Part shown: positions 29,125 to 48,587 of the stretch, piece by piece
Layout: each line of letters starts with the position of its first letter
Position numbering within the stretch: position 1 is the first letter of the stretch
NCBI GenBank assembly: GCA_963666835.2
Contig: CAXXGO010000001.1
Span: 2,048,001 to 2,112,000, forward strand
DNA length: 64,000 nucleotides
Direction of reading: 5' to 3'
Source of the DNA: Phycisphaerae bacterium
Lineage (GTDB): Bacteria; Planctomycetota; Phycisphaerae; UBA1845
Translations under genes and position numbers: made by a program
Notes under the pieces: generated by a model
Database searches by the model: none
What the model was told of the DNA's origin: nothing
What the model saw: only the letters and a program-made list of their open reading frames with translations

Positions 29125-29145
29125 CCCTCTATCCTCCGATATCTG

Positions 29146-29856: not shown

Positions 29857-29892
29857 CCCCAGAAGGCGGGGGAGTGATCCCGCCCACTGGGG
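29857..29892 (-). terminator. GC-rich hairpin, terminator-like
   Basis: CCCCAG..GGCGGG-loop-CCCGCC..CTGGGG followed on the minus strand by TTGCCTTTCT. Confidence 0.45.
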
Positions 29893-29913
29893 CAAGGCAA
29901 GGTCCCGTGTGTG

Positions 29914-30120: not shown

Positions 30121-30145
30121 GGATTCCTTTCCGTCCAAGAGGACA

Positions 30146-30625: not shown

Positions 30626-30650
30626 CTGGCAATCTCCGTTTAAGCCATCT

Positions 30651-30701
30651 ACTACACAACTCTACACCGCCAATGGCCAGTCGTCAAATGGATTGTGTAG
30701 T
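30651..30701 (-). promoter_or_regulatory. sigma70 promoter bracketed by an operator inverted repeat
   Basis: TTGACG-N17-TAGAGT (30687-30659), flanked by ACTACACAA (30651) / TTGTGTAGT (30693). Confidence 0.65.
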
Positions 30702-31670: not shown

Positions 31671-31955
31671 GTGGTGGCAGTGGTAGCAGAGTGGTAGCAC
31701 CATCACGGCTGCTGCCACGCATCAAAACATATATATATATGCGCCAAGTCGCATTAGTGGTGGCAGTGGTAGCAGATTTCCCTTACTCAGCGAAGAAGAT
31801 AGAATCGATTTGGGCAAACCGATATCGGTAACGACAGGGAGTTTGCCGGATCTGCTGCCACTGCTGCCACGAATTCACGAAAACACTACTATAGTAGGAC
31901 AAAACGCGTGGTGGCAGATTCGACGCTGCTACCACTTGCCGTCACCTGCCATCAC
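31671..31955. other. putative replication origin of the element (iterons plus AT core)
   Basis: About 10 copies of GTGGYRGCA in both orientations (e.g. 31671, 31680, 31691, 31757, 31766, 31908 forward; 31710, 31853, 31862, 31927 reverse) around (AT)6 at 31729-31740. Confidence 0.75.
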
Positions 31956-32184
31956 ACCTTCCGATGTCTTCCTGTGATTTCCCACGTTTTCCCAAGACTT
32001 CCCACGATTTCCATACTGACCTATGGGCTCTTTGCCATCGCGGCAACTTTCCTTTATGACTGAGGTATAAGAATGACGAAGCATTAGTTGGGCAGGCGAG
32101 TAGCTCTCGCCGTAGTCGTGAGCTGGTGGAGTAACGCTCTTTCCTCCACTAGCTTGCGACTGCTCGACATAGAAGGAGCGAATA

Positions 32185-33204: not shown

Positions 33205-33341
33205 AATTTCATGAACTTTCACGCACACAATCCAGCCCCCAAAACGGCCATAACGACCCCGTAAAGGCCGTTCACATCTAACAACTCGTGAACACCGGGA
33301 TAGGTGAAAGCAATGTCGCTTTCCTAAACCTGGAGATTCAC
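33201..33341. promoter_or_regulatory. GTGAA/TTCAC operator-like repeats upstream of the replication operon
   Basis: Near-perfect palindrome GTGAAATTTCATGAACTTTCAC (33201-33222), plus further TTCAC/GTGAA half-sites up to the next start codon. Confidence 0.5.
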
Positions 33342-33342
33342 G

Positions 33343-33684
33343 ATGCAGAACGACGCAACGGACACACCGCCCCGGCTACTGACCACGGGGGAGATCGCCA
33401 AGCGGCTCGGCCAACGGGTTGACCGTATCGCCCGCATTCTGAGGACGAGACCACACATTCAGCCATCGGCAATGGCTGGCAACTCTCGGCTGTACGATCA
33501 TGAGTCCTACATCCTGATCTGCCGCGAGATCGCAACCATCGACGCACGGAAGACCGAGCGGAAGAGATTCATCGACAAGCTGTGCAAGGCGGCAACTGGC
33601 CCCGACCGAGCCTCTCGGCGGTTGTATTCAGACAGTGATGTGGAATTGAAGAAGCGGATGGGGCAGGAAGGCGGTGCCTCGTGA
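33343..33684 (+). CDS. MerR/Xis-like HTH protein
   Basis: LLTTGEIAKRLG...PSAMAGNSRLYD; GGAG RBS. Confidence 0.7.
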   Translation: MQNDATDTPPRLLTTGEIAKRLGQRVDRIARILRTRPHIQPSAMAGNSRLYDHESYILICREIATIDARKTERKRFIDKLCKAATGPDRASRRLYSDSDVELKKRMGQEGGAS

Positions 33685-33914
33685 AAGATCCATCCACACT
33701 CACCAGAAAAGAGATGACGGCGGCGCGGAAGGCTATACGTGAGCAGTGCCAATTGCTGAACGAAGCGGTCCTTAACGCGATGCATTGGCACGCTATGCGG
33801 CCATGTGTTGTAAGAAGGTACCTGAAGTATCTGACGGCAATTGAAGAGGAGTTCGTACGGGCTAAACCCCGAAAGGGCCCGAGGCGGAAAGGCGGCGCGG
33901 TCAATGAAGGATAA
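33681..33914 (+). CDS. small hypothetical protein (element)
   Basis: GTGA coupling with the upstream gene; overlaps the next start. Confidence 0.55.
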   Translation: MKDPSTLTRKEMTAARKAIREQCQLLNEAVLNAMHWHAMRPCVVRRYLKYLTAIEEEFVRAKPRKGPRRKGGAVNEG

Positions 33915-34383
33915 ACCCGTCATCATGATCGACCAGCGCGAGAAACTCCCGTGGAAGTTCGATAGCCCGACCGAATCTGCGTTGTTGCAGACCGCCGACT
34001 ACTCGATTCGGGGATTAGAACACCGGATCGCGATTGAGCGGAAGAGCCTTGACGACCTGCTCGGGTGTGTGGGCAGGAACCGCGAGAGGTTCACCCGTGA
34101 GCTCGAACGCCTCCAAGGTATTCAATGCCGATGCGTGGTGGTCGAGTCTAGTCTTGAGGATATCCGAGCAGGCTCATGGCGCCCGCAGATTACGCCAGCC
34201 CAGACCGTGGGCAGTATCGCTAGCTGGATGGCCAAGTTCAATGTCTGCTTCTTTCTCGCCGGCAACCGCGACTTAGCCGCAAGGTTCGCTGAGAGGTTTT
34301 TGGTCAACGCTGCCCGGACGTTGGCTTCCGAGTACGAGGCGGCTGTCGAGTTCCTCGAGGTGGCAGGAGGGCGAGATGGGTAG
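33904..34383 (+). CDS. ERCC4-domain nuclease
   Basis: IDQREKLP, ADYSI, IAIERKSLDDL, VVVE. Confidence 0.85.
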   Translation: MKDKPVIMIDQREKLPWKFDSPTESALLQTADYSIRGLEHRIAIERKSLDDLLGCVGRNRERFTRELERLQGIQCRCVVVESSLEDIRAGSWRPQITPAQTVGSIASWMAKFNVCFFLAGNRDLAARFAERFLVNAARTLASEYEAAVEFLEVAGGRDG

Positions 34384-36838
34384 TAATCAATGGCGAGAAG
34401 TCACCAAGGCTGAACCCTGCCCGATCTGCTCTCACGGCGATTGGTGCGCATTCTCGACAGACGGTTCTGCCTGCCGATGTATGCGACTGGATGCGCCATC
34501 GGCCGGATGGAAGTTCCTTCGGACTGATTCTGACGGGGGTAGTACCTTTCGGCGTACCGACGCAACCCCGACTCCGGCACCCGCGAAGCCAGACAAGCCC
34601 CGCAAGCGGCACGAGACCTTTGAGGGCGCGGTCAAAGCACTAGCTTGGAACGTTGAACGCTGTCAGAAGGAAGCCGGAAAGCGTATCGGTGCGGAGTTCG
34701 TCGCGTACTACCCATACGAGCGTCTCGACGAATCCGACAACGCAGTCGAAGTGAACCGGGAAGTCAGGTTCCTCGATCCCTCTGGCAAGAAGGAAATGAG
34801 ATGGTGTCATCAGGGCTCTGACAATCGTTGGGTGACCAAACGCGGAGATCATCGCGGCATCTTCGGGCTCGGTAATGTGCTCGCAGCACCTTCGGACACC
34901 CCGATCCTGATCGTCGAGGGCGCCAAGGTTGCTGTCCTCGCCAAGGATCTCGACCTGCTTGCGGTCACGTCTGGAGGATGCACTTCGGCTAAGCTGGTCG
35001 ACTGGTCCCCCCTCAGTGGTCGTGACGTAGTTGTCCTGCCCGATGCCGGTGAAGACGGAGCGAAGTACGCGGATGCCATACAAAGGGCACTCGCGAAGCT
35101 GAACTCTCCACCATCGGTCAAGGTTATTCGCCTGCCCGGGTTGGAGGACAGCGAGGACCTAGAAGAGTACATCGCAAACCAGCGTACCGCAGGTCTATCC
35201 GACGATGCCATCAGAGAGAAGATCGTGACGATGATTGAAGATGCCCCCAAAGCGGAACCACCAGCACCGGAGCCGGAACCGAAGAAGAAGCGTGCCGGTC
35301 CACCCATTGATGAGCAACTACTTAAGATGGTGCTTGATCGTTATGACATCCGACGTTCGATGGATGATAAGACCTTCGCCACATTGAAAGACGGCAAATC
35401 GTGCATCGTGCAGATGGTCAACACCGATCGTCGTGGGATATGCGGGGTCATGCGCAGAATGTATACCGATCGCCACGAGTATGCCAATCTGGATCAGTCG
35501 GTATTGAACAAGGTTGTTGCCACATTGGATTCACGGGGCGACGATCTAGATCGAGAGACAATCCATCTTCGTGTTGCCGATTATGGTGAGAACACATCGT
35601 ACTATGATCCGGGCTGGCGTTCGGGGCAGGCTATACAAATCGGCCCTGACGGTTGGGATGTTGTAGAGCGTCCTCCCGTATGGTTTCGACGAGCCCAGCT
35701 AACGTATCCAATGCCTGAGCCTGTGCGCGGTGGAGATCTTGATCGCCTACGTGAGCTTATCAACGTGCAGACCGATGCAGAATGGACGATGCTATTGGGA
35801 TGGTTAGTTGCATGTACGTTCGAGGTTATTGACCACCCTATTTGCTTTCTTGGCGGTCGTGCCGCCTCTGGTAAATCAACTGTAATGCACTTGATCACGA
35901 GCGCGATCGATTACCTGGGCGACGAGGATCTTGCGCCTCCAGAAGACCCACGAAGCTGGGCTGCTCTCGCCGACAATAGCTGGGTGATGCAGGCTGACAA
36001 CATATCGCATATCGATGCCGCATGGAGCAATACGTTGTGCAGCGGGGTGACTGGAGCAAGGAAACCCGACCGAGAGTTGTATACGAATACGGGGCTAGTC
36101 GTCATCGGTATGCGACGATGCATCATCCTAACGAGCATTGATGTAGGCAAGGTGCGCAGCGACTTGGCCTCCCGCCTCATGAAGATCAATCTCAAGCGAA
36201 TCGATAAGCCTCGTAAACCGAGGGTGCTGCGCGAGGCATTCAAGAGCGCTCACGGGGAGATCTTCGGCGGATTGCTCGACTTGAGCGCAAAGGTGCGAGG
36301 ACGATTGCCAAACATAACGGATACGGGATCGTTTCGTTGTGTGGACTACGCGTACATTCTCAAGGCTATTGACCAGGAACTCGGTACAACCGGGTTTGAT
36401 GCGTATGCAGCCATGCAAGCAGATTGCACACGTGCGGTGGTTGAGGATGATGTGGTGGGTGAGATGGTGGTGAAACTCGTGAGAGAGAATGGCGGGCGCT
36501 GGAGCGGGAAGATGAGAGATCTTTTTCAGATGCTGGATGGTCGCGCCGGAACGCCGAAGACACCTGCAACGCTGGGTAAGGCGATAAACCACATGGAGAA
36601 TTCGTTGGAGGCTATGGGGATTAGGTTTAAGAGTCGGCCGACTAATGATGCAAGGGTGTGGACGTTCTATGAGTTCGCATCGGATGTGGCCTCCGGAGAC
36701 GATCCCAACGTGCGGAAGTTCGCACCTGCGCCCAGCACAGACGAAGACCCATTCCCTCTGAATCCACCACCACCATCCCCGATGGAAGCGGAGGAAGTAT
36801 ATGTAGACGAGCACGGTGAGGAGTGTGGGACCATATGA
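34376..36838 (+). CDS. primase-helicase (Zn finger + TOPRIM + P-loop NTPase)
   Basis: PCPICSHGDWC..C.C, ILIVEG, VVVLPD..EDG, DLEEY (TOPRIM), GRAASGKST Walker A, DNIS, ELYTN, IILTSI, DLASR. Confidence 0.85.
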   Translation: MGSNQWREVTKAEPCPICSHGDWCAFSTDGSACRCMRLDAPSAGWKFLRTDSDGGSTFRRTDATPTPAPAKPDKPRKRHETFEGAVKALAWNVERCQKEAGKRIGAEFVAYYPYERLDESDNAVEVNREVRFLDPSGKKEMRWCHQGSDNRWVTKRGDHRGIFGLGNVLAAPSDTPILIVEGAKVAVLAKDLDLLAVTSGGCTSAKLVDWSPLSGRDVVVLPDAGEDGAKYADAIQRALAKLNSPPSVKVIRLPGLEDSEDLEEYIANQRTAGLSDDAIREKIVTMIEDAPKAEPPAPEPEPKKKRAGPPIDEQLLKMVLDRYDIRRSMDDKTFATLKDGKSCIVQMVNTDRRGICGVMRRMYTDRHEYANLDQSVLNKVVATLDSRGDDLDRETIHLRVADYGENTSYYDPGWRSGQAIQIGPDGWDVVERPPVWFRRAQLTYPMPEPVRGGDLDRLRELINVQTDAEWTMLLGWLVACTFEVIDHPICFLGGRAASGKSTVMHLITSAIDYLGDEDLAPPEDPRSWAALADNSWVMQADNISHIDAAWSNTLCSGVTGARKPDRELYTNTGLVVIGMRRCIILTSIDVGKVRSDLASRLMKINLKRIDKPRKPRVLREAFKSAHGEIFGGLLDLSAKVRGRLPNITDTGSFRCVDYAYILKAIDQELGTTGFDAYAAMQADCTRAVVEDDVVGEMVVKLVRENGGRWSGKMRDLFQMLDGRAGTPKTPATLGKAINHMENSLEAMGIRFKSRPTNDARVWTFYEFASDVASGDDPNVRKFAPAPSTDEDPFPLNPPPPSPMEAEEVYVDEHGEECGTI

Positions 36839-37206
36839 CAGCAACAACACGACAGACATGCATGGTACTCGCAGAGCTTCGTCAGAAGGACATCGAGCTA
36901 TTCATCGGGGATGGGGAATTGCGGTACGTTCCTCGACAGGCAATGACAACGGAACTCCACGCGAGACTACAGGCCCATCGAGATGCCATTTTAACGGCAT
37001 TGTCTGACCCGTGCGATACGGCCTTGGCGATAGTCGACGATGTACTTGAGCGTGAGGGTTTTGACGCTGCTCTCGATCTTGGCGAGCACTTCGAGGAACG
37101 CGCAGCCGTGCGGGAGTTCGAGGGCGATGTCTCGCGAGAGCGGGCCGAATGCGGGGCGTTGCTGGATACTTGCTATCGGCTGAATGGTAGGGGGGTGGCA
37201 GAATGA
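36835..37206 (+). CDS. small primase-associated protein (TubC-N-like N-terminus, FEERAA motif)
   Basis: ATGA overlap with the primase gene; LAELRQKDIELFIGDGELRY...LQAHRDAILTAL; FEERAAVREFEGDVSRERAE. Confidence 0.7.
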   Translation: MTATTRQTCMVLAELRQKDIELFIGDGELRYVPRQAMTTELHARLQAHRDAILTALSDPCDTALAIVDDVLEREGFDAALDLGEHFEERAAVREFEGDVSRERAECGALLDTCYRLNGRGVAE

Positions 37207-37499
37207 GTGACGCGCCACTAACCGCGCAGCAGGTCGCCGAGTATCTTCAATGCTCCGTGCAGCACGTGCGCAAACTCTGCCAGTGTGGGGCGCTCAAGTG
37301 TTCCCGCCTGCCCTCGCCGATCTCCGGCAAGATTGGACCGAAGGCTGAGTACCGGATCAGACAATCGGCGGTTGAGGAGATGTTGGGCATTGAGCCTATC
37401 AGAAAGCCTCGACGAAAGACCCTTACTCCTGCTCAGCGACGCCGGGCGCGGTCGGAATTAGAGTTGGCAAAGTCTCTGCTGCGCGCTGGAGCTGGGTAG
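37203..37499 (+). CDS. excisionase-like HTH DNA-binding protein
   Basis: LTAQQVAEYLQCSVQHVRKLCQCGALK...YRIRQSAVEE; adjacent to the integrase. Confidence 0.8.
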   Translation: MSDAPLTAQQVAEYLQCSVQHVRKLCQCGALKCSRLPSPISGKIGPKAEYRIRQSAVEEMLGIEPIRKPRRKTLTPAQRRRARSELELAKSLLRAGAG

Positions 37500-38430
37500 A
37501 CCGGACTTGGGCGTACACTTGGACCATCTTCAGGTCGACATGCCCGAGCAGTTTCGCCACCACCTCAATAGGCGTACCGGCCTCCAACCACGTTTGAGCT
37601 GCAGTATGCCTGAGCGTGTACACCCCGCGAATACCATGCCGAGAGAGCGATCGAGACAGCGATCTACGCTTCCACGGTCCTCCTCGGCAATTGTGAAAGA
37701 CAAGCTCGCCCGGTGAGTGTGGTTCGGGGATTGACTCTAGAACCTCCATCGCTTGGGGTGGCAAGTAGATCGTGCGCGGTCGTCTGGTCTTGGCTGCGGT
37801 CTTGTGCTGATCGAGTACGCAAACCCGTTTCTCCATCCGGACCTGCTCCCATGTCAAAGAGATTGCCTCACTGGGACGGCAGCCGGTCGTGAGAATGAAC
37901 GTGGCGACTCGTTTAATCGTCGGGTTCAGGGTTGACCATGCCTTGGCGATGTTCTCCGGGCTCTCGTCGCGTGGATGCAGGATCTCTTTACGATGAGGTG
38001 CAGAATCGGGTGGCTTATCAATCCAGCCCTGAGCCGCAGCCCAACGACAGACGACCCTCGCCGTAGATGTGTAACGGTTGATCGTGCTGGGCTTGAGGTC
38101 CCGCGTATCGAGGTAATCACCGTAGGCGTGAAGGACAAGCGGATCGTGGAGAATGTCGAAGGGCGCATCTGTTGCGAAGTCCTCAACCCATCGGCCAGCC
38201 GCCCGGGCTAAGTTGTGGTTGGGTTTGGCCTCCTGGCACCATCGCCGATAGAGTTCAGCAATCGAGCTAGGAGCGCCCGCACGTCGCCCCAGACCACCGA
38301 GAATCTCTCCGGCCCGCTTGTATGCGACGGCCATGTCGGTCCCGAGGTGATGATCCTTGCCGCCGACCCGTAACCTGAAGTACGGATTTCGCCCCTTCTT
38401 CCGGATGCACTGAACTGTCGGTTCTCGCAT
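37423..38430 (-). CDS. tyrosine recombinase/integrase
   Basis: TGCRPSEA (R), HKT (K), YTLRHTAA, LLGH...QVYA (H, Y); small N-terminal beta arm-binding-like domain. Confidence 0.93.
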   Translation of the reverse strand: MREPTVQCIRKKGRNPYFRLRVGGKDHHLGTDMAVAYKRAGEILGGLGRRAGAPSSIAELYRRWCQEAKPNHNLARAAGRWVEDFATDAPFDILHDPLVLHAYGDYLDTRDLKPSTINRYTSTARVVCRWAAAQGWIDKPPDSAPHRKEILHPRDESPENIAKAWSTLNPTIKRVATFILTTGCRPSEAISLTWEQVRMEKRVCVLDQHKTAAKTRRPRTIYLPPQAMEVLESIPEPHSPGELVFHNCRGGPWKRRSLSRSLSRHGIRGVYTLRHTAAQTWLEAGTPIEVVAKLLGHVDLKMVQVYAQVRSTQLQRAAETLPTLIPTAPGVAEQE

Positions 38431-38447
38431 AATTCGCCTCCCTGCTA

Positions 38448-38513
38448 GCGCCCCCTCGAACCCTTCTTACGGCATCTTAAACGCGGTTGCGATTAGGTCA
38501 AGAGGGGGCGCTC
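38448..38513. promoter_or_regulatory. right arm-type sites overlapping the integrase promoter
   Basis: GCGCCCCCTC at 38448 and AAGAGGGGGCGCTC at 38500 (exact reverse complement of 22293-22306). Minus-strand TTGACC-N16-TAAGAT (38501-38474). Confidence 0.6.
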
Positions 38514-38565
38514 GAAACGAGCAAACCACTATAATATAGGCACGAAACGCAATCCGTACCCCTTC

Positions 38566-38633
38566 TTATCAAAAATGGCGACAAGATCCGCGTCAAGGTC
38601 GAAAACCGCGAATACCAGGGCAAAGAGCACTGA
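38566..38633 (+). repeat. attR: displaced original 3' end of efp (..IKNGDKIRVKVENREYQGKEH*)
   Basis: Direct repeat of 22204-22268 followed by TGA. Confidence 0.95.
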
Positions 38634-38805
38634 CGCCGGCCCGTACTCCGATCGTCTGCCCGCTGCTTGTGTCCGGCTCAGGGTTCATCCGCGGTTACCG
38701 TTGCCCCAATCCAGCGCCTGCCTTTACCCGGCTCGCTTCATTTGCGCCCTCCGGCGTCCGATAGAAACAGGAGAGTAGGTACGTACCGAGGGTCTTCGAG
38801 GCGAA

Positions 38806-39123
38806 ATGTCCGTACACGGCGGCCAACAACAGGATTCCGGATTCGACAAGACCACCGATCCCGCAGGTGGAGGGGCAGGGGCTCTGCCCTCGCGCCGCGC
38901 GATAGTAACCGGCGGGGTGAAGTTGGCTTTCGTTGCTCCGGTTCTGTCGACCTTCTTCGCCAGTCAGGCTTACGCCGCTAATTACAGTTGCTATCCGCTC
39001 GGGCACACGTGTGACACGGTCAGCGAGGGGAAACGGCAGCAGTGTTGCGGCGCGCTTACGTGCAAGGGACCTGATACGATTCCGGTTGATCCGGGCGATG
39101 TCGACGGTACGTGCCAGCCGTAA
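38806..39123 (+). CDS. putative RiPP precursor: RR/FxxPxL leader plus 6-Cys knottin-like core
   Basis: SRRAIVTGGVKLAFVAPVLSTFFASQAYA|ANYS-C-x6-C-x10-CC-x4-C-x16-C-QP; first gene of the PqqD/kinase operon. Confidence 0.75.
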   Translation: MSVHGGQQQDSGFDKTTDPAGGGAGALPSRRAIVTGGVKLAFVAPVLSTFFASQAYAANYSCYPLGHTCDTVSEGKRQQCCGALTCKGPDTIPVDPGDVDGTCQP

Positions 39124-39205
39124 GGTCCGGTTGAGATTCCGGCAGGCTCTTGGTTGGGCCTGGAATGGAGCTCGCCGGAGAGACTGGATCCAAGGAAGGG
39201 TTGCC

Positions 39206-40531
39206 ATGTCCTCGGCAGCATCAGGGCGGACGGCTACGTTGTTCATAATCGCTTGTGCGCTGGGCGGGGCAGGCGTGTCCGGGACGCTGCTCAAGGCGCA
39301 CGACGGCGGTTGGCAGATCGCCAGCCGGGACGGCGTCGGTCTTATTCAGTATTGCAACGCTCAGATTATTCCCAACGCCGATTGCCCGCAGGTCATGGGC
39401 AGCCGCTGGGGGTCCTTCGATGCCCGGATCGGCTCACACCGAGTGTTGGTTCCCACCTCACTGATCGGCTTGGCGTACTTCGTTGCCGTGGCCGTCTGGT
39501 TTGGGATGGTCAGTCCCGGTGGGGTCCGGGGCGGTTGGACCTGGCCGATTACAATCCTCGCAGTGGCGGCAGGGCTCGCCGGATCGTTGTTTCTCGTGGT
39601 CATCATGGCGGTGTCGGTGAGTCGATGGTGCCCCCTTTGCGTGGTCGCACATCTGTTGAACGGGGCGATTGTCATAGCGACTTTGTGGTTGTGGCGACGC
39701 ACCAGGCGTAGTCCCGATTGCAGCGTGCCGGTTGTTCCGGGGATGATTCGTCTTCGCCGCCGGCTGGCGTGGTCTGCCGCAACAGTGGCTCTGGGGGCGG
39801 CCGTGGGATTCTGGCTCTACTTCGATGCGGTGACTGAAGCCCGTCGACAATGGCGAAAGTACACTCATTTGAAGCAAGCGGTAACCGCCCTGCAGGACGA
39901 CCCGCAACTCACGCTTCGGGCGTTCTATGCTCAAGAGGTCGTCGAAGACCTATGGGACGATCGAAACGCTGATTCGGAATGGGGGGTGAGTACGCTCCGT
40001 CCGCGGCTTACGGTGTTCACGGACTACGATTGTGGCCCCTGCGCATGCTTCGAGAGTACCCGCGAGCGGGTGATCAGCGTGGCCTTTACGGACGGCGTGG
40101 ATCTCCAGGTACGCTACTGCCCTGAAACCACCGGGACGGGGCGGGCAGACGTGTCGACTTTGGCGGCGAGCTGCGCCGCGGAAGCGGCTCGGCGCCAAGG
40201 CGGATCGGACGCGCAGCTACGCATGCATCGGTTGCTGTTCATTCACCGCCAGGCTGGTCCGCAACGAGACTACGCCGACTTGGCCCGGCAGGCCGGCCTT
40301 GACGTTGACCGATTCCTGGAAGATTGGCAAAGCGAGCCGGTGCGGGAGGCGGTTCTGAGCGATATTGGTCTGGCGAACTCTCTGAAGGTCTCCGCCCCGG
40401 CCGTGTTCCTCGAAGGTCGGCGCGTGCCGGACTTGTGCGTTGAGAGCCCGACCTTCTGGGAGGCGGTTTCGGCTGAGCTGGCCAAGGAACGGGTCGCGGC
40501 CTCGTCCGAGATCGGGGAGGAGCTGCGATGA
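39206..40531 (+). CDS. VKOR-DsbA/thioredoxin fusion (disulfide-bond formation)
   Basis: YC..x..DCPQVMGSRW loop cysteines, TM helices, WCPLCVVAH (VKOR CxxC); FTDYDCGPC and SAPAVFLEG (DsbA). AAGGAAGG RBS. Confidence 0.88.
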   Translation: MSSAASGRTATLFIIACALGGAGVSGTLLKAHDGGWQIASRDGVGLIQYCNAQIIPNADCPQVMGSRWGSFDARIGSHRVLVPTSLIGLAYFVAVAVWFGMVSPGGVRGGWTWPITILAVAAGLAGSLFLVVIMAVSVSRWCPLCVVAHLLNGAIVIATLWLWRRTRRSPDCSVPVVPGMIRLRRRLAWSAATVALGAAVGFWLYFDAVTEARRQWRKYTHLKQAVTALQDDPQLTLRAFYAQEVVEDLWDDRNADSEWGVSTLRPRLTVFTDYDCGPCACFESTRERVISVAFTDGVDLQVRYCPETTGTGRADVSTLAASCAAEAARRQGGSDAQLRMHRLLFIHRQAGPQRDYADLARQAGLDVDRFLEDWQSEPVREAVLSDIGLANSLKVSAPAVFLEGRRVPDLCVESPTFWEAVSAELAKERVAASSEIGEELR

Positions 40532-40860
40532 CTGACGCGGTCAACGGCGATGGTGTGCGTCTTTCGCCGGCCGTCTGCTCCGAGTCCGGCAGTCAAGCGC
40601 GCCTCGTCCGGAGAACGGATGTCACCGTCTATGAGCTGGACGGAGAGGGGCTGGTCTTCGACGCCACCCGCGGTGACACGCATCGTCTGAACGCGACGGC
40701 TATGGCGATTTGGCGCGAATGTGACGGCCGGCAGGATGCAGCGCAGATTGCCGAACGCCTTACGGATTCTTATGACGTTTCTATGGCAGCGGCTGTTGAG
40801 CATGTGGAGAGGCTTCTTCGAGAGTTTCAGGAACGGCGGCTGGTTTACACGGCGTTTTGA
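40528..40860 (+). CDS. PqqD family protein (RiPP recognition element)
   Basis: YELDGEGLVFD...THRLNATAMAIWRECDG...IAERLTDSYDV...VERLLREF..RRLV; ATGA coupling. Confidence 0.9.
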   Translation: MTDAVNGDGVRLSPAVCSESGSQARLVRRTDVTVYELDGEGLVFDATRGDTHRLNATAMAIWRECDGRQDAAQIAERLTDSYDVSMAAAVEHVERLLREFQERRLVYTAF

Positions 40861-40872
40861 CACAGGGACCGG

Positions 40873-41781
40873 ATGCTTAGCATGGCCCGGGATGACAGGC
40901 AAGACGTGATGCACTTTCAGATCGGCGAGGTAGCGATGTCGCTGCGGACGCCGCTCCGGTCGTTACGCAGTCAGTATCTTGCTCTGTATGAAGACTTCCG
41001 GGTCCCGCAGCGGGCACGCAACTCCATTCGCATCGAGGTTCGCCCCTCGCAGCGGTCCTTACGCCATCGGCGGTGCTACCGGGTCTATGTGGACGGGCGA
41101 TTGCGGTTCGAGCCGACCCGGTTCAAGGAACTGCTGCCCTACGTGGAGTGGGCGGTCAACTGGGAGTTAGCCCGGGTCATGCCGCAGTTTCTGCAACTCC
41201 ACGCCTCCTCCATGGAGATTAACGGGCAGGGCGTGATTCTGCCGGGGGCGTCGGGTAGCGGAAAGTCCACCCTGACTACCGGACTGATTGCCGACGGATG
41301 GCGATATCTCTGTGATGAATTCGCGTTGATTCATTCGGGCACCCTGGAGCTTCACCCGTTTCCCCGGGCGATTTGTGTCAAGAAGCCGGCATTTTCCGTG
41401 ATGGAGTCCCTCGGGTTTCACCTGCAGAAAGCCCGGCATTACCACAAGGGGACCAAGGGCGATGTAGTTTTTCTGAATCCGTTGAATCTGCGGCCCAATG
41501 GGATCGGACGCACCTGCCCGGTACGATATGTCGTCTTTCCGCGCTACGCCGCTGGAGCGGAACCGGCGCTGGTGCCCATCAGCCGGGCGGAGGCGGCCCT
41601 CGACATGCACCACGTCTGCTTCAACCTCTTCGGGTGCCGGACGCTCGGCGTGGAGGTTCTGGCGAAGCTGGTACGGGGGGCTTCCTGTTATCGACTTATC
41701 AGTGGAGAGATTGGCAAGACCTGTCGTTTGCTCCGCGGAATGGTCGAACAGGCGGCCCAACCGCAGGCTCTAAGCGCGTAA
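40873..41781 (+). CDS. HprK-related kinase
   Basis: LQLHAS...GVILPGASGSGKSTL...GWRYLCDEFALI...HPFPRAI. Confidence 0.85.
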   Translation: MLSMARDDRQDVMHFQIGEVAMSLRTPLRSLRSQYLALYEDFRVPQRARNSIRIEVRPSQRSLRHRRCYRVYVDGRLRFEPTRFKELLPYVEWAVNWELARVMPQFLQLHASSMEINGQGVILPGASGSGKSTLTTGLIADGWRYLCDEFALIHSGTLELHPFPRAICVKKPAFSVMESLGFHLQKARHYHKGTKGDVVFLNPLNLRPNGIGRTCPVRYVVFPRYAAGAEPALVPISRAEAALDMHHVCFNLFGCRTLGVEVLAKLVRGASCYRLISGEIGKTCRLLRGMVEQAAQPQALSA

Positions 41782-41816
41782 GGTCGCGATCGAGGGGAGA
41801 CGCCCTTGGCGGAGCG

Positions 41817-42995
41817 ATGGAGGACTTGATGGACCATAGTGGAATCCAACTTGCCCCCTGGTTGAACGCTGCCGGTCCGCCGCGTGCCGCTGTCGAGTGG
41901 ATGGAACCAGTCGAAGTGGCCTGCGAATCCGGGCTTGCCGGGTTGCTCTTGGAACACGTTTCGCGACACGGGCTCGAACCTCCGGCAGATGCCGCCGAGA
42001 CCCTGCGCCGCGCGGCTGCGTCAGTCGCGCAAAACAACATCCACCTGCACGACGAGCTGGCTGACGTGGTTCAGGCTTTCAACCGGGCGAAGGTCCCCGT
42101 GATGCTCCTCAAAGGGGCAGCCCTCAATCATACGATCTACCCCCGATATAACCTCCGTCCGATGAGCGATCTCGACTTGCTCGTCCACCCGGATTCGGCG
42201 GAAGAGGCCGTGCAGTTGCTTGCCGATCACGGTTGTCCGCGCGGATTCGATCTCGTCCGCGACGATTTCTTCCCGAAATACCACAACGAGGTCGAGTTGC
42301 TGACGGGCTCGCCCAATCCCGCCCGGATCGATCTGCACGCGCGACCGCTACGCCCACTACGAATCTCGCAGACAATGCCGGACGACGCTCTGTGGGAAGA
42401 CGCTCAACCGGTTCATATCGGAGACGGTAAGGCGTGGATCCCCCGTCCGGAGTTAAACTGCCTCCACTTGGCGGCCCACGCGGCTTATCATGGCTGTTCC
42501 CGGTTGATCTGGCTATATGATCTTCTCAGGCTTCACGAAGCGTACGGCAGTGTCATGGATTGGGGTCTGTTGGTCGATCGGGCTCGGGAATGGAAGCTGT
42601 CGTGGCCGGTCCTTTTCGCCCTGCGTCGCGCGGGCGAGCTCCTCGGCGAAGTCTGTCCGCCAGGGGTAATCGAGAAGCTGGAGGGACATCCGATCGGCTG
42701 GCGCGACCGGTTGGCTCTAGTTCACGCTCCACGGGACGCCGCCGCCCCGATCTCTCATCTCGTAGTAGATCTGCTCTGTACGCCCGGGATTCGCTTCCGG
42801 ATAGGGTACGCCTCGTCCTTTGTGCTGCCCGGAGGTAAGCATCTGGCCGGGATCTACCCCTTCCGGCACCGGGGATGGAAGGCGGTTGCGCACCTCTGGC
42901 GGTGTCTTCGAGCCGCAGGCCGGGCTGTGGCGGGGCTGGCGAGCGCGCCGGCCGCTCTGCTGCGTCGAGGCAGCTTCCGGTTGGCGTCTCCGTAA
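41817..42995 (+). CDS. nucleotidyltransferase family protein (NTP_transf_5-like)
   Basis: MLLKGAAL, YP...RPMSDLDLLV, IDLH, HLAAHA, LIWLYDL. Confidence 0.87.
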   Translation: MEDLMDHSGIQLAPWLNAAGPPRAAVEWMEPVEVACESGLAGLLLEHVSRHGLEPPADAAETLRRAAASVAQNNIHLHDELADVVQAFNRAKVPVMLLKGAALNHTIYPRYNLRPMSDLDLLVHPDSAEEAVQLLADHGCPRGFDLVRDDFFPKYHNEVELLTGSPNPARIDLHARPLRPLRISQTMPDDALWEDAQPVHIGDGKAWIPRPELNCLHLAAHAAYHGCSRLIWLYDLLRLHEAYGSVMDWGLLVDRAREWKLSWPVLFALRRAGELLGEVCPPGVIEKLEGHPIGWRDRLALVHAPRDAAAPISHLVVDLLCTPGIRFRIGYASSFVLPGGKHLAGIYPFRHRGWKAVAHLWRCLRAAGRAVAGLASAPAALLRRGSFRLASP

Positions 42996-43132
42996 CCACC
43001 CAGCCCGATAATCACCTGGATTGGACCGCACAAGCCGCCGATATCAGCGGCAGTTGGTGCCGTGTACGGATCACCGTACCCGGACCGACCTGACCCGGGA
43101 TTCAGGCTCTGTCGGACTGTGGCGGAACAGCG

Positions 43133-44140
43133 ATGACGCGTTGGCATCAACACACGGTGGCCGTCGTGATGACCGTGAAGAACGATCCCGCGGGTTGTGC
43201 CGTGACCCTTGGTTCGCTGGTAACCCAGACACGCCGCCCGGACGAGATAATCGTAGTAGACGGCGGGTCGACCGACGATACCGTGCGTTTGGTTCGGCAG
43301 TACCAGGGCAGCCTGCCACAATTGCGGGTTATTGACGCTCCCGGGGCCAACATCGCTCGCGGGCGAAACATCGGGGTCGAGGCGGCAGAGTCAGAGATTG
43401 TGGCCACGACCGATTGCGGATGTCGGGCGGATTCGAAGTGGCTGGAGGAGTTGCTGCGACCTTTCCAGGAGGATCCCGGCACGGAATTCGTGGCGGGTTT
43501 CTATCGAATCGAAGCCCACAGCCTTCTGGAAGAGGTTGTGGGGTTGGCGACGATGCGCGGGCAGTTGGACCCGGTCGACCCGGACAAGTTCAACCCGTCG
43601 GCTCGGTCGATGGCGCTGACCAAAGCGTTGTGGACCAGGGCGGGGGGCTGGCCGGAGTGGATCTCGTTTTCCGAAGACACCCTCCTGGATCACAAGATAA
43701 GGCAGATGGACGTCGGGTGGGCTTTCGCCGGAGATGCGGTGGTACGCTGGCGTCCGCGCCGGTCGCTTCCGGCAATTGCCCGCCAGTTTCATAATTACGG
43801 CACCGGGCGGGGGCACACGCAGATTGATGCCGCGGGCTATCTTTACGACGTTCGGAACGGCCTGCTCTTTGCGGGGACGGCGGTTGCCAGCCTGTGGACG
43901 GTGTGGGCGCTGCCGCTTCTTGTCGCGATTTTTGGCTATTTCTATGTTTGGGCGTTTCACCACAAGGCGATGCGTGTGGCCCGCCGGGCCGGACGCTGGC
44001 CGGCATACCCGCTTTGCCTCTGCGTTATGTGGGTGATCATTGCGGTGAACATCACCGGGTTCCTGGCGGGTTCCTGGCAGAGGCAACGGGATCAGGGTCG
44101 ATACCGGCGTCGGCTCGAGGCATACCTGGCCGGCCCCTGA
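43133..44140 (+). CDS. GT2 family glycosyltransferase with C-terminal TM helices
   Basis: QTRRPDEIIVVDGGSTDDT, NIARGRN, TTDCGC, GGWPE...SEDT. Confidence 0.88.
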   Translation: MTRWHQHTVAVVMTVKNDPAGCAVTLGSLVTQTRRPDEIIVVDGGSTDDTVRLVRQYQGSLPQLRVIDAPGANIARGRNIGVEAAESEIVATTDCGCRADSKWLEELLRPFQEDPGTEFVAGFYRIEAHSLLEEVVGLATMRGQLDPVDPDKFNPSARSMALTKALWTRAGGWPEWISFSEDTLLDHKIRQMDVGWAFAGDAVVRWRPRRSLPAIARQFHNYGTGRGHTQIDAAGYLYDVRNGLLFAGTAVASLWTVWALPLLVAIFGYFYVWAFHHKAMRVARRAGRWPAYPLCLCVMWVIIAVNITGFLAGSWQRQRDQGRYRRRLEAYLAGP

Positions 44141-44305
44141 GACTCCGTCCCCGCTTACCAAGGGAGGATCGAGGGGCGTCGATTCGGGAGCTGCAGAGTT
44201 TTCCGGGGTTTTCAACAAGAACGCCCGTAGTGACTTAGAAAAGTGCCCGACGCCGACAATGGAGCGGCCTATCCAGTGAATCGAAACCAGCCAACCCGCT
44301 CCACG

Positions 44306-45745
44306 ATGAGGCGACGCTGGCTGTGTGTCGCCTACGCTTTCCCTCCGATCAATCGAAGCGGAACGCACCGCACCTTGGGCTTCGTGAGGCACCTGGATTC
44401 GCTTGGGTGGGACGCCACCGTGCTAACCGTGGATCCAGGGGATGAGCCGGTTGATGCTGGTCTCCTTGACCGGGTCCCCGAGTCGACCGAGGTCATTCAA
44501 TCGCTGTGGACGGACCTTATCGCCCAGGCAAAACGGATGTTGTGCCTCGGGCGTTCTCAAGAGAGAGCGAGTGATTTTCCCCGCGACGCCGCGCGTTACG
44601 ACCAAACCGTCATCAGCGGAACCGCCCGCGATGGAAAGCCGGGCGGGGTGAAGGAGTGGGTGTCCCGTTTGTTGATTACTCCGGATTCCCGGCTTGGTTG
44701 GCTCGGTCCGGCAACACGCCGGGGTATGGCCGCAATTCGCCGACGGCGCCCCGAGGTGATCTACTCGACCTCACCGTATATGACGGCTCATCTGATCGCG
44801 GCGCGACTTGCCCGCCGAACGGGCGTCCCCTGGGTTGCGGATTTTCGAGATCCGTGGTGCGACAACCCGTTCCGCAGTCTAGGCTTCACGAGTCTTCGGC
44901 GATGGGATGAATGGTTGGAGCGTCGGACCCTTCGCCGCGCCGCTCATGTAGTATGCACGACCTCGACCATGCGGGATCGATTTGCGGAGCGACTGCCGTT
45001 CGTGCGCGAAAAGTCCAGCGTCATCACCAACGGGTTCGACGCAGAGCTGTTGACCGGCCTTACGCCGACACGCGTTGCGCCGGTGGAAGATCTGGTCCTG
45101 ACCCACTGTGGACAGTTCTACGGGCCGCGTCGCCCGCAGGTGTGGTTCGATGCCCTAAGACGGGTGCTGGACCAACCTTCGGATCGACCGCGGAGAATCC
45201 ACTTGCAGTTGCTCGGACCGGATTCGTACGAGGGCCGGCCGCTGATGGAACTGGCCGCGGACGCGGGAGTCGCCGAGCATGTTCACGTGTCGGGCTCCAA
45301 GAGCCATCGGGAGGCTCTATCGCACATGGCCGGCAGTGACGTGTTGCTGCTGGCCGGATCGTCGGGCGTCGGTAGCGATCTGCAGGTGCCCAACAAACTG
45401 TTCGAGTACCTTGCCGTGCGCCGGCCGATTATCGCCGCGGTTTCCGCAAACAGCCCGGTCGTTGGGATCCTCCGCGAAGCCGGGGCGGAGGCGTCTGTCT
45501 GCGATCCGGAAGATGCACTCGGTATTGCCGAAGCGATCGAGAACCTCTCCGAATCGCATAGTCCGGACCCCGCGCAAGCATGGGATGGCGTTTCCCGGTT
45601 CGACCGCGCCAATCGAGCGCGCGAGCTGGCTGCGATCTTTCAGCACGTATCCCAGTCGAAGATCCTCGGACGGACATCGCGGATTGCCGCCGCCGACCAC
45701 AAGTGCCAAGGCGTAGACACCGCCCGCGGCTACGCCCACGGATAG
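44306..45745 (+). CDS. GT4 family glycosyltransferase
   Basis: AYAFPP, GWDATVLT, PDSRLGW, PWVADFRDPW, ITNGFD, VPNKLFEYL. Alternative GTG start at 44243. Confidence 0.88.
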   Translation: MRRRWLCVAYAFPPINRSGTHRTLGFVRHLDSLGWDATVLTVDPGDEPVDAGLLDRVPESTEVIQSLWTDLIAQAKRMLCLGRSQERASDFPRDAARYDQTVISGTARDGKPGGVKEWVSRLLITPDSRLGWLGPATRRGMAAIRRRRPEVIYSTSPYMTAHLIAARLARRTGVPWVADFRDPWCDNPFRSLGFTSLRRWDEWLERRTLRRAAHVVCTTSTMRDRFAERLPFVREKSSVITNGFDAELLTGLTPTRVAPVEDLVLTHCGQFYGPRRPQVWFDALRRVLDQPSDRPRRIHLQLLGPDSYEGRPLMELAADAGVAEHVHVSGSKSHREALSHMAGSDVLLLAGSSGVGSDLQVPNKLFEYLAVRRPIIAAVSANSPVVGILREAGAEASVCDPEDALGIAEAIENLSESHSPDPAQAWDGVSRFDRANRARELAAIFQHVSQSKILGRTSRIAAADHKCQGVDTARGYAHG

Positions 45746-45796
45746 AGGCTCGCGAGTTCGCCCCCTCGATCCGGTGGGTGCCGCCCGCCAGCGCTA

Positions 45797-47131
45797 TTAT
45801 CCGCGTATCACCCAGCGAAGCATCTGGGCGAAGTTCGCCCCTTTACCCTGCATCAGAATCCCGACCCGGAAGATCCGGCCGGCGGCGAAGACGCAGACGA
45901 TTGTGGTTAGTAGGACCAGCACGATTCCCACGACCGGCTGCCACAGCGGGACCCCGGGCGGCACCGCCTGCCGGATGGTCATCAGCATGGGCGTGGCGGG
46001 CGGAATCAGCGACAGAATAACCGACAGCGGGGCGGTCGGCTCGCGTACGACGAAGATCCAGCAGAACAACGGCATGGCCACGACGATCATCACCGGCATC
46101 AGAGCGCTCTGAGATTCCTTCATGTCCGAGACCGCCGCGCCGATTGCTACGAAAACGGAGCCGAACATCAGCACCGCCAGAGCAAGGAACGTGACGAACC
46201 AGATCACCAAGTGCGAGGGGAAGTACTCCTCGAAGCCGGCGTGTCGGATTGCGAAGTACGCCCCGAACAGGTAAATGACCGCGAGCGTCAGCGATACTCC
46301 GACCATACCGATCAGCTTGCCCATCATGAGCTGGAACGGCGGGATCGATCCAAGGAGGACTTCGGCGATCCGCTGCATCTTCTCTTCGAGCACGCTGTGA
46401 ACCAGTGGGGTGGCGCCAATGTTGATGATCATGAACATCAGCATCATCATACCCATGGGTATGAATATGTTGGCCAGCTCGTTAGTCTCGGTCGCCTTGG
46501 TGATGTTCCCCTCCTTGTCGACCGACACCAGGCCGAGGTTGGCAATCGACATCCACTTCGTAGCTTTCTTGACCACTTCCTGGTCGAGCCCGGCCTTGGC
46601 GAAGCGGAGTTCCTTGATCCGATTGTTGATGGGAAAGCCTACCCAACGCTGAAAATCGTCACTGGTGGGACTGTTTGAATGGTAATCAATCGACTGACGC
46701 GAGTCACCGTCTTTCGGGGTAATTACGTCGGGCTCTATAATGACGAACGCGAATAGTTCGCCGTCGCGGACCCGATTAGACAGATTCAGCTTAACCCGCT
46801 CCGGGTCGTCCGCGGTGGGGGCGATTCGTTCTATGACGAAGCGGGGCATGACTTGCTTACGCTTTCCGTTCTTCGTTTCGTAGATCCCCTGGTCTTTGAT
46901 ATCCTGCTCGTTGCGCTCGTTGGACGCCTCGACAATCGCGTCGAACAGCTCTCCAGTGTGGTCCACGATGGCTACATGCCGGTCGGAGATGTCGCGTTTG
47001 TCCTCCAGAATGGTCTGGGCAATCAGTACGCCGCACATCAGAATGGGCATGGCGATCATGCTAATGACAAAGGCCTTCGTTCTGACAGCGGCTTGATACT
47101 CGCGGACGGCGACGACGATCATCTTACGCAT
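45797..47131 (-). CDS. ABC-2 type transporter permease (NatB-like)
   Basis: VAVREY..VRTKAF, VLEEKMQRIAEVLL, LMMGKLIG, SLIPP..PMLM, RIFRVGILMQGK. Confidence 0.88.
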   Translation of the reverse strand: MRKMIVVAVREYQAAVRTKAFVISMIAMPILMCGVLIAQTILEDKRDISDRHVAIVDHTGELFDAIVEASNERNEQDIKDQGIYETKNGKRKQVMPRFVIERIAPTADDPERVKLNLSNRVRDGELFAFVIIEPDVITPKDGDSRQSIDYHSNSPTSDDFQRWVGFPINNRIKELRFAKAGLDQEVVKKATKWMSIANLGLVSVDKEGNITKATETNELANIFIPMGMMMLMFMIINIGATPLVHSVLEEKMQRIAEVLLGSIPPFQLMMGKLIGMVGVSLTLAVIYLFGAYFAIRHAGFEEYFPSHLVIWFVTFLALAVLMFGSVFVAIGAAVSDMKESQSALMPVMIVVAMPLFCWIFVVREPTAPLSVILSLIPPATPMLMTIRQAVPPGVPLWQPVVGIVLVLLTTIVCVFAAGRIFRVGILMQGKGANFAQMLRWVIRG

Positions 47132-48068
47132 GGCTGGCCTCCTGAGCTTGGGACGCGGTGGCGGCCGTGTCTGCCTCCGGGCCGGCTATCCTGACGAAGA
47201 TGTCGTGAAGCGACGGTTTGGCAAGCTCGAAGTGAGCCACCCGCCCCCGCGCCATCAGAGCGGCGAGGGTCTGTTGCGAATCGGTGTCCGGAGCCATCCG
47301 CAGTTCCTGGAGATGGCCGAAGTCCGTTACCTTCTCAACTCCTTCGATTCCACGCGGGTCGAATCCTCCGTTCTCCACCTTCACTCTGATCGTATCCTGT
47401 CCGTATGAGTCCTGGATCGAAGCGAGCGTGCCGTCGAGCACCTTGTTGCCCTTGAAGATCATGAAGATGAAGTCGCACATCTTCTCGGCCACGGCCATGT
47501 CATGGGTCGAGAAGATCACCGTGGCGCCGCGCTGCCGCAAAGCGAGGACCTCCTCCCGCAGGACATCGGTATTCACGGGGTCAAGCCCGGTGAACGGCTC
47601 GTCCAGGATCACGAGTCTCGGATCGGCGATGACCGAGGAGATGAACTGGACCTTCTGAGCCATGCCCTTCGACAGGGTCTCTATCTTGCGGTTTGCCCAG
47701 TCGGCCAAATCCAGCCGATCGAGCCAGTGCTTGACGGCGGCGTTGAAGTCACGCCGCCCTTTAAGTTCGGCGTAGAACCGCAGGAGGTCCCACACTTTCA
47801 TCTTTTTGTAAAGGCCCCGCTCTTCCGGCAGGTAGCCGATTTCGTCGTTAGCGGCCGTCAGACTCTCCTCGCCCAACACGCGAATCCGCCCGGTTCCCGC
47901 ATCGGGCCGGTAGATCCGCATGATCATCCGCAGAGTAGTCGTTTTGCCCGATCCGTTGGGCCCGATGAATCCGTAGATTGCGCCTTCGGGTACGGAGAGC
48001 GAGAGGTTGTTTACTGCGATGTGCTCACCGAACGTCTTGGTGGCGTTTTCAATCTCGACAATGTTCAT
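47124..48068 (-). CDS. ABC transporter ATP-binding protein
   Basis: GPNGSGKTT, LSKGMAQK, ILDEPF, FSTH. Confidence 0.93.
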   Translation of the reverse strand: MNIVEIENATKTFGEHIAVNNLSLSVPEGAIYGFIGPNGSGKTTTLRMIMRIYRPDAGTGRIRVLGEESLTAANDEIGYLPEERGLYKKMKVWDLLRFYAELKGRRDFNAAVKHWLDRLDLADWANRKIETLSKGMAQKVQFISSVIADPRLVILDEPFTGLDPVNTDVLREEVLALRQRGATVIFSTHDMAVAEKMCDFIFMIFKGNKVLDGTLASIQDSYGQDTIRVKVENGGFDPRGIEGVEKVTDFGHLQELRMAPDTDSQQTLAALMARGRVAHFELAKPSLHDIFVRIAGPEADTAATASQAQEASHA

Positions 48069-48305: not shown

Positions 48306-48587
48306 TTAGTTTACCAGGTCCTTGCCTCGCTTGGTCAACGCGGCGGCCATGATCTGCTGCCCGGCCTCGTTGCTGAGGTTGCCGGACCAGATCAGCCCCT
48401 CCGCCCGGAGCTCTTCGAGCCAGTCCATCATGTTGTCCGAACACTGCTCCACCGTGAAGCCGGAATGATCGGCGATTTCACCGGCGAGTTCGAACTCCGT
48501 CAGGGGACCACTGCGCAGTCTTCGCAAGATCACAAGCTGATGCTGTCGTAATGCGTCCATCGTGTCGATCATGACTCGTCTCCCCAT
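48306..48587 (-). CDS. small winged-helix-like protein
   Basis: ILRRLRSGPLTEFELA...LEELRAEGLI...LTKRGK. Confidence 0.6.
   Translation of the reverse strand: MGRRVMIDTMDALRQHQLVILRRLRSGPLTEFELAGEIADHSGFTVEQCSDNMMDWLEELRAEGLIWSGNLSNEAGQQIMAAALTKRGKDLVN

Follow-up and report, generated by a model that had tools for sequence, protein, structure and literature searches.

A candidate leader-directed peptide-modification cassette of Phycisphaerae whose leader may double as a twin-arginine signal

Why would a bacterium encode a small cysteine-rich peptide in one run with a disulfide-forming enzyme, a peptide-recognition protein, a kinase, a nucleotidyltransferase (NTase) and two glycosyltransferases, and which of these act on the peptide? 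Such a run lies at 38806-45745 of a 64,000-nucleotide stretch (hereafter the window) of contig CAXXGO010000001.1 from a Phycisphaerae bacterium (Planctomycetota). A preliminary description had proposed a new class of peptide made on the ribosome and modified after translation (RiPP) built on a knottin-type precursor. The seven co-oriented open reading frames (ORFs) that it listed are all present on the + strand: precursor, VKOR-DsbA, PqqD/RiPP recognition element (RRE), HprK-like kinase, NTP_transf_5, GT2 and GT4. Profile matches agree with the six enzyme and RRE assignments. Our results point, with a probability of roughly 0.6, to a leader-directed peptide-modification system of Phycisphaerae which resembles the linear polyphosphorylated peptide (LPP) systems of Bacillota and whose leader doubles as a twin-arginine translocation (Tat) signal. 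The core of the cassette is four genes:

38806..39123, + strand: precursor of 105 residues, with a variable n-region (1-28), a dual leader (29-57) and a 48-residue core (58-105)
40528..40860, + strand: stand-alone PqqD/RRE (PF05402 53.3 bits; TIGR04353 43.1 bits, cut-off 35)
40873..41781, + strand: HprK-related kinase (TIGR04352 189.3 bits, cut-off 200)
41817..42995, + strand: NTP_transf_5 nucleotidyltransferase (PF14907 181.3 bits)

The intergenic gaps of the whole run are, in order, 82, -4, 12, 35, 137 and 165 (or 102) bases, and the RRE start overlaps the VKOR-DsbA stop by ATGA. A gapless contig of run X3 covers 38566-45900. Promoter and terminator scans gave counts no better than chance. 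The source genome is 6.0 Mb in size and 92% complete; it has a single PqqD copy and a TatC.

The precursor and its companion enzymes

The precursor matches no Pfam or NCBIfam family at E<=0.1. Eighteen of 20 candidate proteins are precursor homologs, in which the six cysteines are invariant. Compared with a strain from a second study, the precursor gene shows 11 base differences: five fall in codons 1-24 and change four residues (codon positions by arithmetic), and the six from codon 25 onward are five silent changes and one Ile-Leu exchange. These data mark the precursor as a genuine gene that is under selection. The family is large, with 571 clusters at 50% identity (E<=0.001), and an ESM Atlas search gave matches limited to unnamed Cys-rich clusters.

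The precursor closely follows the kinase between genomes. With a profile of 34 precursors it was found in 42/42 kinase-positive and 2/19 kinase-negative genomes. The 42 include nine that played no part in building the profile, and completeness of the two exceptions is 65% and 85%. Altogether it is present in 44/61 related genomes and in 33/36 genomes of one Phycisphaerae family, where the kinase is found in 31/36. When 123 kinase loci were collapsed at kinase identity >=97%, 100 distinct loci remained, of which 92 have the RRE, 87 the NTase and 79 the precursor. This last count bears on a test proposed in the preliminary description, namely that a small RR/[FY]xxP ORF should consistently adjoin the enzymes, and it supports that proposal. 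Where at least 3.5 kb of upstream sequence was available, the precursor was seen in 69/81 kinase loci; nine of the 21 loci lacking an adjacent precursor have less than 1.5 kb upstream, and two others carry one elsewhere in the genome. A few precursors stand alone, elsewhere in their genomes, and no further copies were found in the source genome.

In-frame fusions place the precursor behind the kinase in five loci (L059, L061, L214, L225, L227), behind the RRE in another five (L046, L047, L067, L132, L133) and behind an NTase-SET protein in two (L053, L127), and fusions also occur among called proteins. Those of L053 and L133 have no alternative start codon within 60 codons of the arginine pair. 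Several others do have such starts, and some of these may consist of two genes that share a frame.

The RRE profile has TfuB1, TbiB1 and LppB (9x8z) as its nearest solved relatives. The kinase has H110, a Walker A motif (G128-G130-K131-T133) and D148-E149, and its best 80 relatives in named genomes are from Phycisphaerae or other Planctomycetota, bar two labelled just "uncultured bacterium". The NTP_transf_5 enzyme conserves D118-x-D120, a pair that is required in PsmN according to the available text of PMC6993621.

Leader, core peptide and variable partners

The precursor can be divided into the following elements:

38890..38898, + strand: twin-arginine motif S29-R30-R31 (family consensus [ST]-R-R-x-[FV]-[LV]-R)
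38929..38946, + strand: RRE-binding-type motif F42-x-x-P45-x-L47 (F-16/P-13/L-11 from the predicted cut), in an LppA-like register
38968..38976, + strand: A-Y-A, predicted signal peptidase I-type site at residues 55-57, from conservation of the register
38977..39120, + strand: core, with Ser4 directly before Cys1 (candidate phospho-site) and six Cys in the pattern C-C-CC-C-C

Tat signals consist of an [ST]RRxFLK motif, a hydrophobic h-region and an AxA site. The most unusual feature of the system is that its leader appears to be a Tat-type signal and an RRE motif in LPP register at once. R30 and R31 are invariant across the precursor alignments, and the consensus given above holds over 147 representatives; this and the other counts over 147 or 149 representatives were parsed from the best 150 of the 571 clusters, a set that leans to Cys-rich members. 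A hydrophobic stretch follows the usual layout (mean hydropathy 1.8). Small-x-small occurs at the predicted cut register in 33/34 precursors, compared with at most 11 at eight other registers, and in the wider set in 141/149 vs 59 at the next-best register; Ala occupies -1 in 71/82 precursors of a wider set. The export signal claimed for the precursor in the preliminary description is thus consistent with the arginine consensus, the hydrophobic stretch and the AxA site at fixed register.

The same residues carry the putative RRE handle. The leader proline is invariant in 34/34 precursors, and [FY]xxPx[LIV] begins exactly 16 residues before the AxA cut. In the main text of PMC13381572, the LppA leader is reported to bind LppB with Y-16/P-13/V-11, a register that the F-16/P-13/L-11 of our locus matches. 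A model of the RRE with the leader scored 0.56 compared with 0.04 for the best control, with runs agreeing in at least 98% of contacts and a partner pLDDT of at least 57, which we rate as weak support. The mark that it passed is reached by 116/157 solved and 2/215 mismatched pairs, scores up to 0.60 include 18 solved pairs and both mismatches, and resemblance to lasso RRE complexes already solved may explain the pass. In LppB, D70 hydrogen-bonds Tyr-16 of the leader (PMC13381572, main text). Among 75 loci, the RRE position aligning with D70, mapped by hand, is Asp with a Tyr leader in 29 and with a Phe leader in none, and His with a Phe leader in 25 and with a Tyr leader in 12; the source locus pairs His with Phe at -16. 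This covariation between RRE pocket and leader aromatic is suggestive only, because the kinase tree, on which the 21 loci without a precursor were omitted from the pair tests, gives a single informative pair.

The 48-residue, six-Cys core described earlier follows AYA at residue 57 and has the expected pattern. Its reduced monoisotopic mass is 4999.16 Da and its net charge about -3, and Ser4 is the sole serine ahead of Cys1. A serine or threonine within the first four core residues is found in 141/147 representatives, compared with 53% expected from the rest of the cores. Of 82 precursors, 34 are Cys-free and 48 Cys-rich. The Cys-free cores are mostly 5-9 residues long, about one-third Ser, and 26/34 end in Ser. 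In the Cys-rich group 41/48 have six Cys, Ser precedes the first Cys in 47/48 and stands immediately before it in 30. The third and fourth Cys are adjacent in 41/41 six-Cys cores, so the knottin-like spacing, of inhibitor cystine knot (ICK) type, held up as a sequence pattern. A similar Cys motif is found as a module inside larger proteins from the same organisms, two of them with signal-peptide-like starts (L137, L140). These arrangements suggest that the knot is a domain appended to a short Ser-bearing core. The knot and the VKOR-DsbA had been presented as defining features, and this did not hold: 34/79 loci have Cys-free cores, by which count the knot is optional, and an adjacent VKOR is missing from 16 of the 45 Cys-rich loci.

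The candidate folding enzyme lies directly downstream of the precursor:

39206..40531, + strand: VKOR-DsbA fusion (PF07884 54.0 bits, PF01323 29.9 bits)

It has the loop pair C50/C60, C142xxC145 and the thioredoxin motif C276xxC279. In agreement with the pairing proposed in the preliminary description, VKOR-DsbA adjoins 29/45 Cys-rich and 0/34 Cys-free precursors, or 28/43 and 0/26 at loci with enough upstream DNA. Of the best 15 VKOR-DsbA matches 13 sit in the cassette, and the VKOR CxxC is intact in 38/38. In L126 a VKOR-DsbA paralog has a stand-alone Cys-rich precursor immediately upstream, in L125 another such precursor is one gene away, and in L040 a single open frame holds both VKOR-DsbA and RRE. 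From this distribution, VKOR-DsbA seems to accompany the knot but not to be obligatory. In genome G015, a VKOR-DsbA ortholog lies beside GT2-GT4 (L071:8121-9605), with precursor, RRE, kinase and NTase on another contig (L055).

Two glycosyltransferase genes complete the run:

43133..44140, + strand: GT2 glycosyltransferase with C-terminal hydrophobic segments, a neighbour of the cassette (profile match)
44306..45745, + strand: GT4 glycosyltransferase, alternative GTG start 44243, which travels with GT2; also a neighbour (profile match)

These had been called dedicated, a description that the wider set contradicts. Of the 75 loci long enough to reveal a neighbouring GT2, 21 have it next to the kinase. 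GT2 orthologs, present in 30/36 family genomes, adjoin the cassette in 12 and are elsewhere in 18, and a leader scan of the 18 distant stretches found none; GT4 orthologs occur in 17/36, ten of them beside the cassette. Many of the 18 stretches carry Wzm/Wzt-type ABC genes, further glycosyltransferases, carbamoyltransferase or O-antigen ligase, according to a scan of 40 chosen ORFs. Genome G008 (96% complete) keeps GT2, GT4 and a metallo-beta-lactamase (MBL)-fold gene with kinase and precursor missing. In three parts of the kinase tree (the main clade, L046 and L206/L237) GT2 adjoins the cassette, and it does so at Cys-rich loci only (17/36 vs 0/26 Cys-free). GT2 and GT4 were rejected as required parts; 54/75 loci with room lack GT2 and 18/30 orthologs are away from the cassette. 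Most likely the two belong to the making of envelope polysaccharide, and a role in lengthening a sugar on the peptide is possible.

Known systems, related loci and surroundings

The closest characterised system is LPP of Bacillota (LppA/K/B/S/D/N), which is described in the main text of PMC13381572 (2026) as having a stand-alone RRE, an HprK-like kinase and an uncharacterised NTP transferase with no macrolactam cyclase. LppK polyphosphorylates Ser3 and does not accept Thr, and LPP clusters sit in capsular polysaccharide loci. Our cassette likewise has the three enzymes as discrete proteins and no macrolactam cyclase. The Ser at core position 3 in LppA has a counterpart at position 4 here and at 2-4 in most relatives, and both systems have a signal-peptidase-I-type cut site, polysaccharide genes nearby and a variable C-terminus. 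The differences concern export and the substrate. An LppS-type SipW-like peptidase is absent from the cluster, and TIGR02228 had no match in the 92%-complete genome; there is also no MsbA-like exporter (LppD), the nearest candidate being a convergent ABC-2 pair at 45797-48068 that few loci share. The LPP leader reads YxxPxVLxHQxIxFETxxS, whereas here a hydrophobic stretch and AxA stand where LPP has HQxIxFET, together with a twin-arginine-type signal. Further distinctions of the cassette are a leader Phe at -16 paired with an RRE-pocket His, a six-Cys core, VKOR-DsbA and a Planctomycetota host, and the words "twin-arginine", "disulfide" and "Planctomyc" are absent from the main text of PMC13381572. 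Lacking LppS and LppD and having a different leader end, the cluster falls outside LPP but probably works like it. The statement that no characterised pathway has this combination therefore stands for the full gene set but not for an RRE, HprK-like kinase and NTP transferase without a cyclase, which is LPP. Relative to LPP, the apparently new elements are Tat export and the cystine knot.

The cassette also resembles the HPr-rel-A type, which pairs a TIGR04352 kinase with a TIGR04353 chaperone of the PqqD family. The RRE scores above TIGR04353 and the kinase matches TIGR04352 over nearly its whole length; it differs in falling under the cut-off, and its scores suggest a sister subfamily of TIGR04352. 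The HPr-rel-A models name no substrate. Among 301 genomes of the phylum, 19 match TIGR04352 at E<=1e-15, two of them above cut-off. Of 18 such loci that were inspected, none has VKOR, and in eight a profile, a motif or inspection by eye revealed an RR-leader ORF. Both above-cut-off loci (L141, L142) have, by eye, a small RR-leader ORF upstream of the kinase, but with LGVP in place of [FY]xxP, Cys-free cores and no VKOR.

PadeK and PsmK are HprK-type Ser kinases of paeninodin and pseudomycoidin that yield (poly)phospho-Ser, and PsmN is needed for one or two hexoses on phospho-Ser, for which its authors suggest a partner glycosyltransferase (available text of PMC8498205 and PMC6993621). An HprK-type kinase and a DxD NTP transferase are shared with our cassette, and the Cys-free cores that end in Ser resemble those substrates. 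The Planctomycetota cluster differs in having no lasso cyclase, B2 peptidase or ABC exporter and an internal candidate Ser. Profile searches bear out the absence of lasso cyclase and B2 peptidase noted earlier. Genome-wide, within the 92% that is covered, the B2 peptidase model PF13471 has a single match, below cut-off, and all five PF00733 (cyclase-type) matches are far from the cluster. A lasso cluster acting in trans was rejected on these grounds and because the PqqD copy is single.

Six Cys with the third and fourth adjacent, a length within 30-50 residues and weak top fold matches that are mostly ICK peptides make the core comparable to knottins; it differs in being acidic, and its knot and disulfide connectivity are putative. 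A bacterial knottin alone is not new, because bacterial knottin sequences already exist, with no solved structure at the date of the database paper (PMC5753296, available text).

Literature searches, with supplements and subscription journals largely outside their scope, gave no account of a Tat-signal/RRE leader or of a knot with VKOR-DsbA, and none on HPr-rel-A or on RiPPs combining HprK, PqqD and NTase. Terms for TIGR04352, TIGR04353 and PF14907 returned nothing related, and no activity data for TIGR04352-type kinases were found. Among the papers listed, twin-arginine and RiPP terms occurred jointly only in an unrelated cyanobacterial paper, and those on knottins and Planctomycetes had nothing on the precursor family. 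The main texts of RRE-Finder (PMC7470986) and PMC12710340 contain no HPr, kinase or nucleotidyltransferase terms; their supplements may list such clusters.

Several related loci carry further enzymes. In L134:5029-8697 two B12-binding radical SAM genes separate a Cys-free Tat-leader precursor from the RRE-kinase-NTase genes. In L143:7866-9798 a radical SAM-SPASM-RRE fusion adjoins a Tat-leader precursor whose core is of another kind, with a repeated Cys-x-Pro, and in L150 a PRMT-like methyltransferase adjoins the precursor. In L153:2597-4948 a PqqD domain is joined to GT2 and GT25 domains in one protein, with a second RRE, a kinase and an NTase alongside. NTP_transf_5-SET fusions are found in L053:3060-4994, L050:9482-11173 and L127:4456-8520, two of them with a C-terminal precursor (L053, L127); the L127 frame also has MgtE_N and CBS domains upstream. 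In one branch (L059, L064, L070, L053, L125, L129, L214, L227) a large repeat-rich surface-type protein lies beside or inside the cassette, in some with LamG, cadherin-like or DUF5122 domains.

Upstream of the run in the window, a 16.4-kb integrative element (22204-38630, GC about 55-59%) has entered an EF-P-family gene (21711-22277) at its 3' end. The element encodes a tyrosine integrase (37423-38430), an HTH_17 excisionase-like protein, an 820-residue primase-like protein and an ERCC4-domain nuclease, and is flanked by 65-bp direct repeats at 22204-22268 and 38566-38630. In all four runs contigs have loose ends at 38566, consistent with an empty site, and with the element gone about 170 bases separate the end of the EF-P gene from the precursor downstream of it. 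The cassette was rejected as cargo of this element because it lies outside the repeats and an element-free strain keeps it. A single ORF at 19697-21520 contains both VipA and VipB sheath domains of a type VI secretion system. On the - strand, a 93-residue winged-helix protein (48306-48587) scores weakly, under the cut-offs, with PqqD and PadR-like models; it is conserved beside the MBL-fold gene in L165.

Weighing the explanations

The LPP-like reading with a Tat-signal leader has to be held against a number of observations. The arginine pair and the proline form part of the leader profile, which makes their counts partly circular in sets found with that profile. The TAT_signal models TIGR01409 and PF10518 each match 1/34 precursors, weakly, SRRAIV of the source precursor departs from the usual F-L, and in the fusions a folded cytoplasmic domain precedes the signal, unlike the ordinary Tat layout. 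The Asp/Tyr link rests on three pairs on the tree. The kinase is 11 bits below the TIGR04352 cut-off; its match is near full-length, and the next family scores 31.8 bits. Several Cys-free cores have Thr as the first hydroxyl residue while LppK rejects Thr, and LppN produced no change in a heterologous host (PMC13381572, main text). For the disulfide step, no VKOR is adjacent at 16/45 Cys-rich loci, 12 loci carry VKOR without an adjacent precursor, VKOR-DsbA paralogs occur in 57/61 genomes, and the DsbA CxxC is intact in 24/39. On the kinase tree the VKOR/Cys link reduces to four independent contrasts, two to three in agreement and none contrary (p 0.25); the Fisher p of 3e-10 was set aside because kin are not independent. 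The knot itself is modelled with pLDDT 74 and pTM 0.51. Its top fold matches are mostly ICK peptides, all weakly scored: the best in Foldseek is 7rz3 (E 0.23, probability 0.96, TMq 0.60), and VIA gave a best Z of 4.3 (root-mean-square deviation 2.7 over 39) and, for tachystatin B, 4.1 (1.9 over 39). Conotoxin and ICK Pfam matches are weak and limited to at most 6/34 precursors.

It is rather unlikely that all seven genes form one pathway in which GT2 and GT4 build a glycan on the NTase-primed phospho-Ser, giving a phosphoglycosylated knottin that is perhaps tied into surface polysaccharide. Such a pathway would add a step to the LPP-like/Tat explanation rather than replace it. It could account for the recurrence of GT2 in three tree parts at Cys-rich loci only, the fused RRE-GT2-GT25 protein of L153, the PsmN-dependent hexosylation with a suggested partner glycosyltransferase (PMC6993621, available text) and the capsular setting of LPP (PMC13381572, main text). 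However, most loci do without GT2, most of its orthologs lie in leaderless stretches, several with Wzm/Wzt-type ABC, O-antigen ligase, carbamoyltransferase and further glycosyltransferases, and G008 keeps GT2-GT4-MBL without kinase or precursor.

We consider it very unlikely that kinase and NTase act on sugars, polysaccharide or another protein and that the peptide is an unmodified secreted knottin sharing their operon. The glycosyltransferase neighbours, the few stand-alone precursors and the lack of TIGR04352-type activity data in the searched papers would fit such a division, but the fusions to kinase, RRE and NTase, the near-perfect co-occurrence, the LPP register and the conserved Ser do not, and cores so short (5-9 residues) and so rich in Ser (about one-third) make little sense unmodified. 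Least probable of all, in our judgement, is a leader that is only an RRE handle on a cytoplasmic peptide whose Cys bind metal, with VKOR-DsbA as a bystander. Poor TAT_signal scores, leaders in mid-protein and Cys-rich loci without VKOR speak for it; the [ST]RRx[FV][LV]R consensus, the hydrophobic stretch and the fixed AxA site speak against it, as do the absence of a dedicated peptidase or exporter conserved across loci, a VKOR that is never beside a Cys-free core, and the Cys module in larger proteins with signal-peptide-like starts.

Returning to the LPP-like/Tat explanation, from the observed genes, motifs, co-occurrence and fusions we infer its chemical steps and export as follows. The cytoplasmic RRE would bind FxxPxL and hold the precursor, as the register, the fusions and the weak complex model suggest. 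By analogy with LppK and PadeK, the kinase would then (poly)phosphorylate a Ser near the core start, here Ser4; phosphorylation had been proposed earlier as the first modification and is the likely primary one, and both Ser4 and the kinase motifs are present. The NTP_transf_5 enzyme may cap the phosphate with a hexose or a nucleoside monophosphate, which is the least certain step and leans on PsmN. TatABC would export the peptide and the housekeeping signal peptidase I would cut after AYA, replacing the dedicated peptidase and ABC pump of LPP. Finally, periplasmic VKOR-DsbA would oxidise the six Cys to an ICK-like fold, so that knot and oxidase might be an add-on module on a short Ser-rich core.

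Tentatively, and with slightly less than even confidence, the cassette could be seen as a separate RiPP class founded on an RRE-handle/Tat-signal leader. In this class Ser would be phosphorylated and capped in the cytoplasm, Tat and a housekeeping peptidase would stand in for a dedicated exporter and protease, and the appended knot would be folded by a co-opted VKOR-DsbA, giving phospho- or phosphoglyco-knottins. The leader might also be a platform for SET, B12 radical SAM, radical SAM-SPASM and PRMT-like enzymes, and might work fused behind its own RRE, kinase or NTase.

If the LPP-like/Tat explanation is true, the uncharacterised HPr-rel-A-type cassette gains a substrate. The explanation would also describe cytoplasmic modification of a peptide followed by export and oxidation by general machinery, all guided by one 29-residue leader. 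The function of NTP_transf_5, left open for LppN and partly known for PsmN, is testable here. Natural bacterial cystine-knot scaffolds would be offered together with their folding enzyme, from a precursor family that is large, unannotated and nearly fixed in one Phycisphaerae family.

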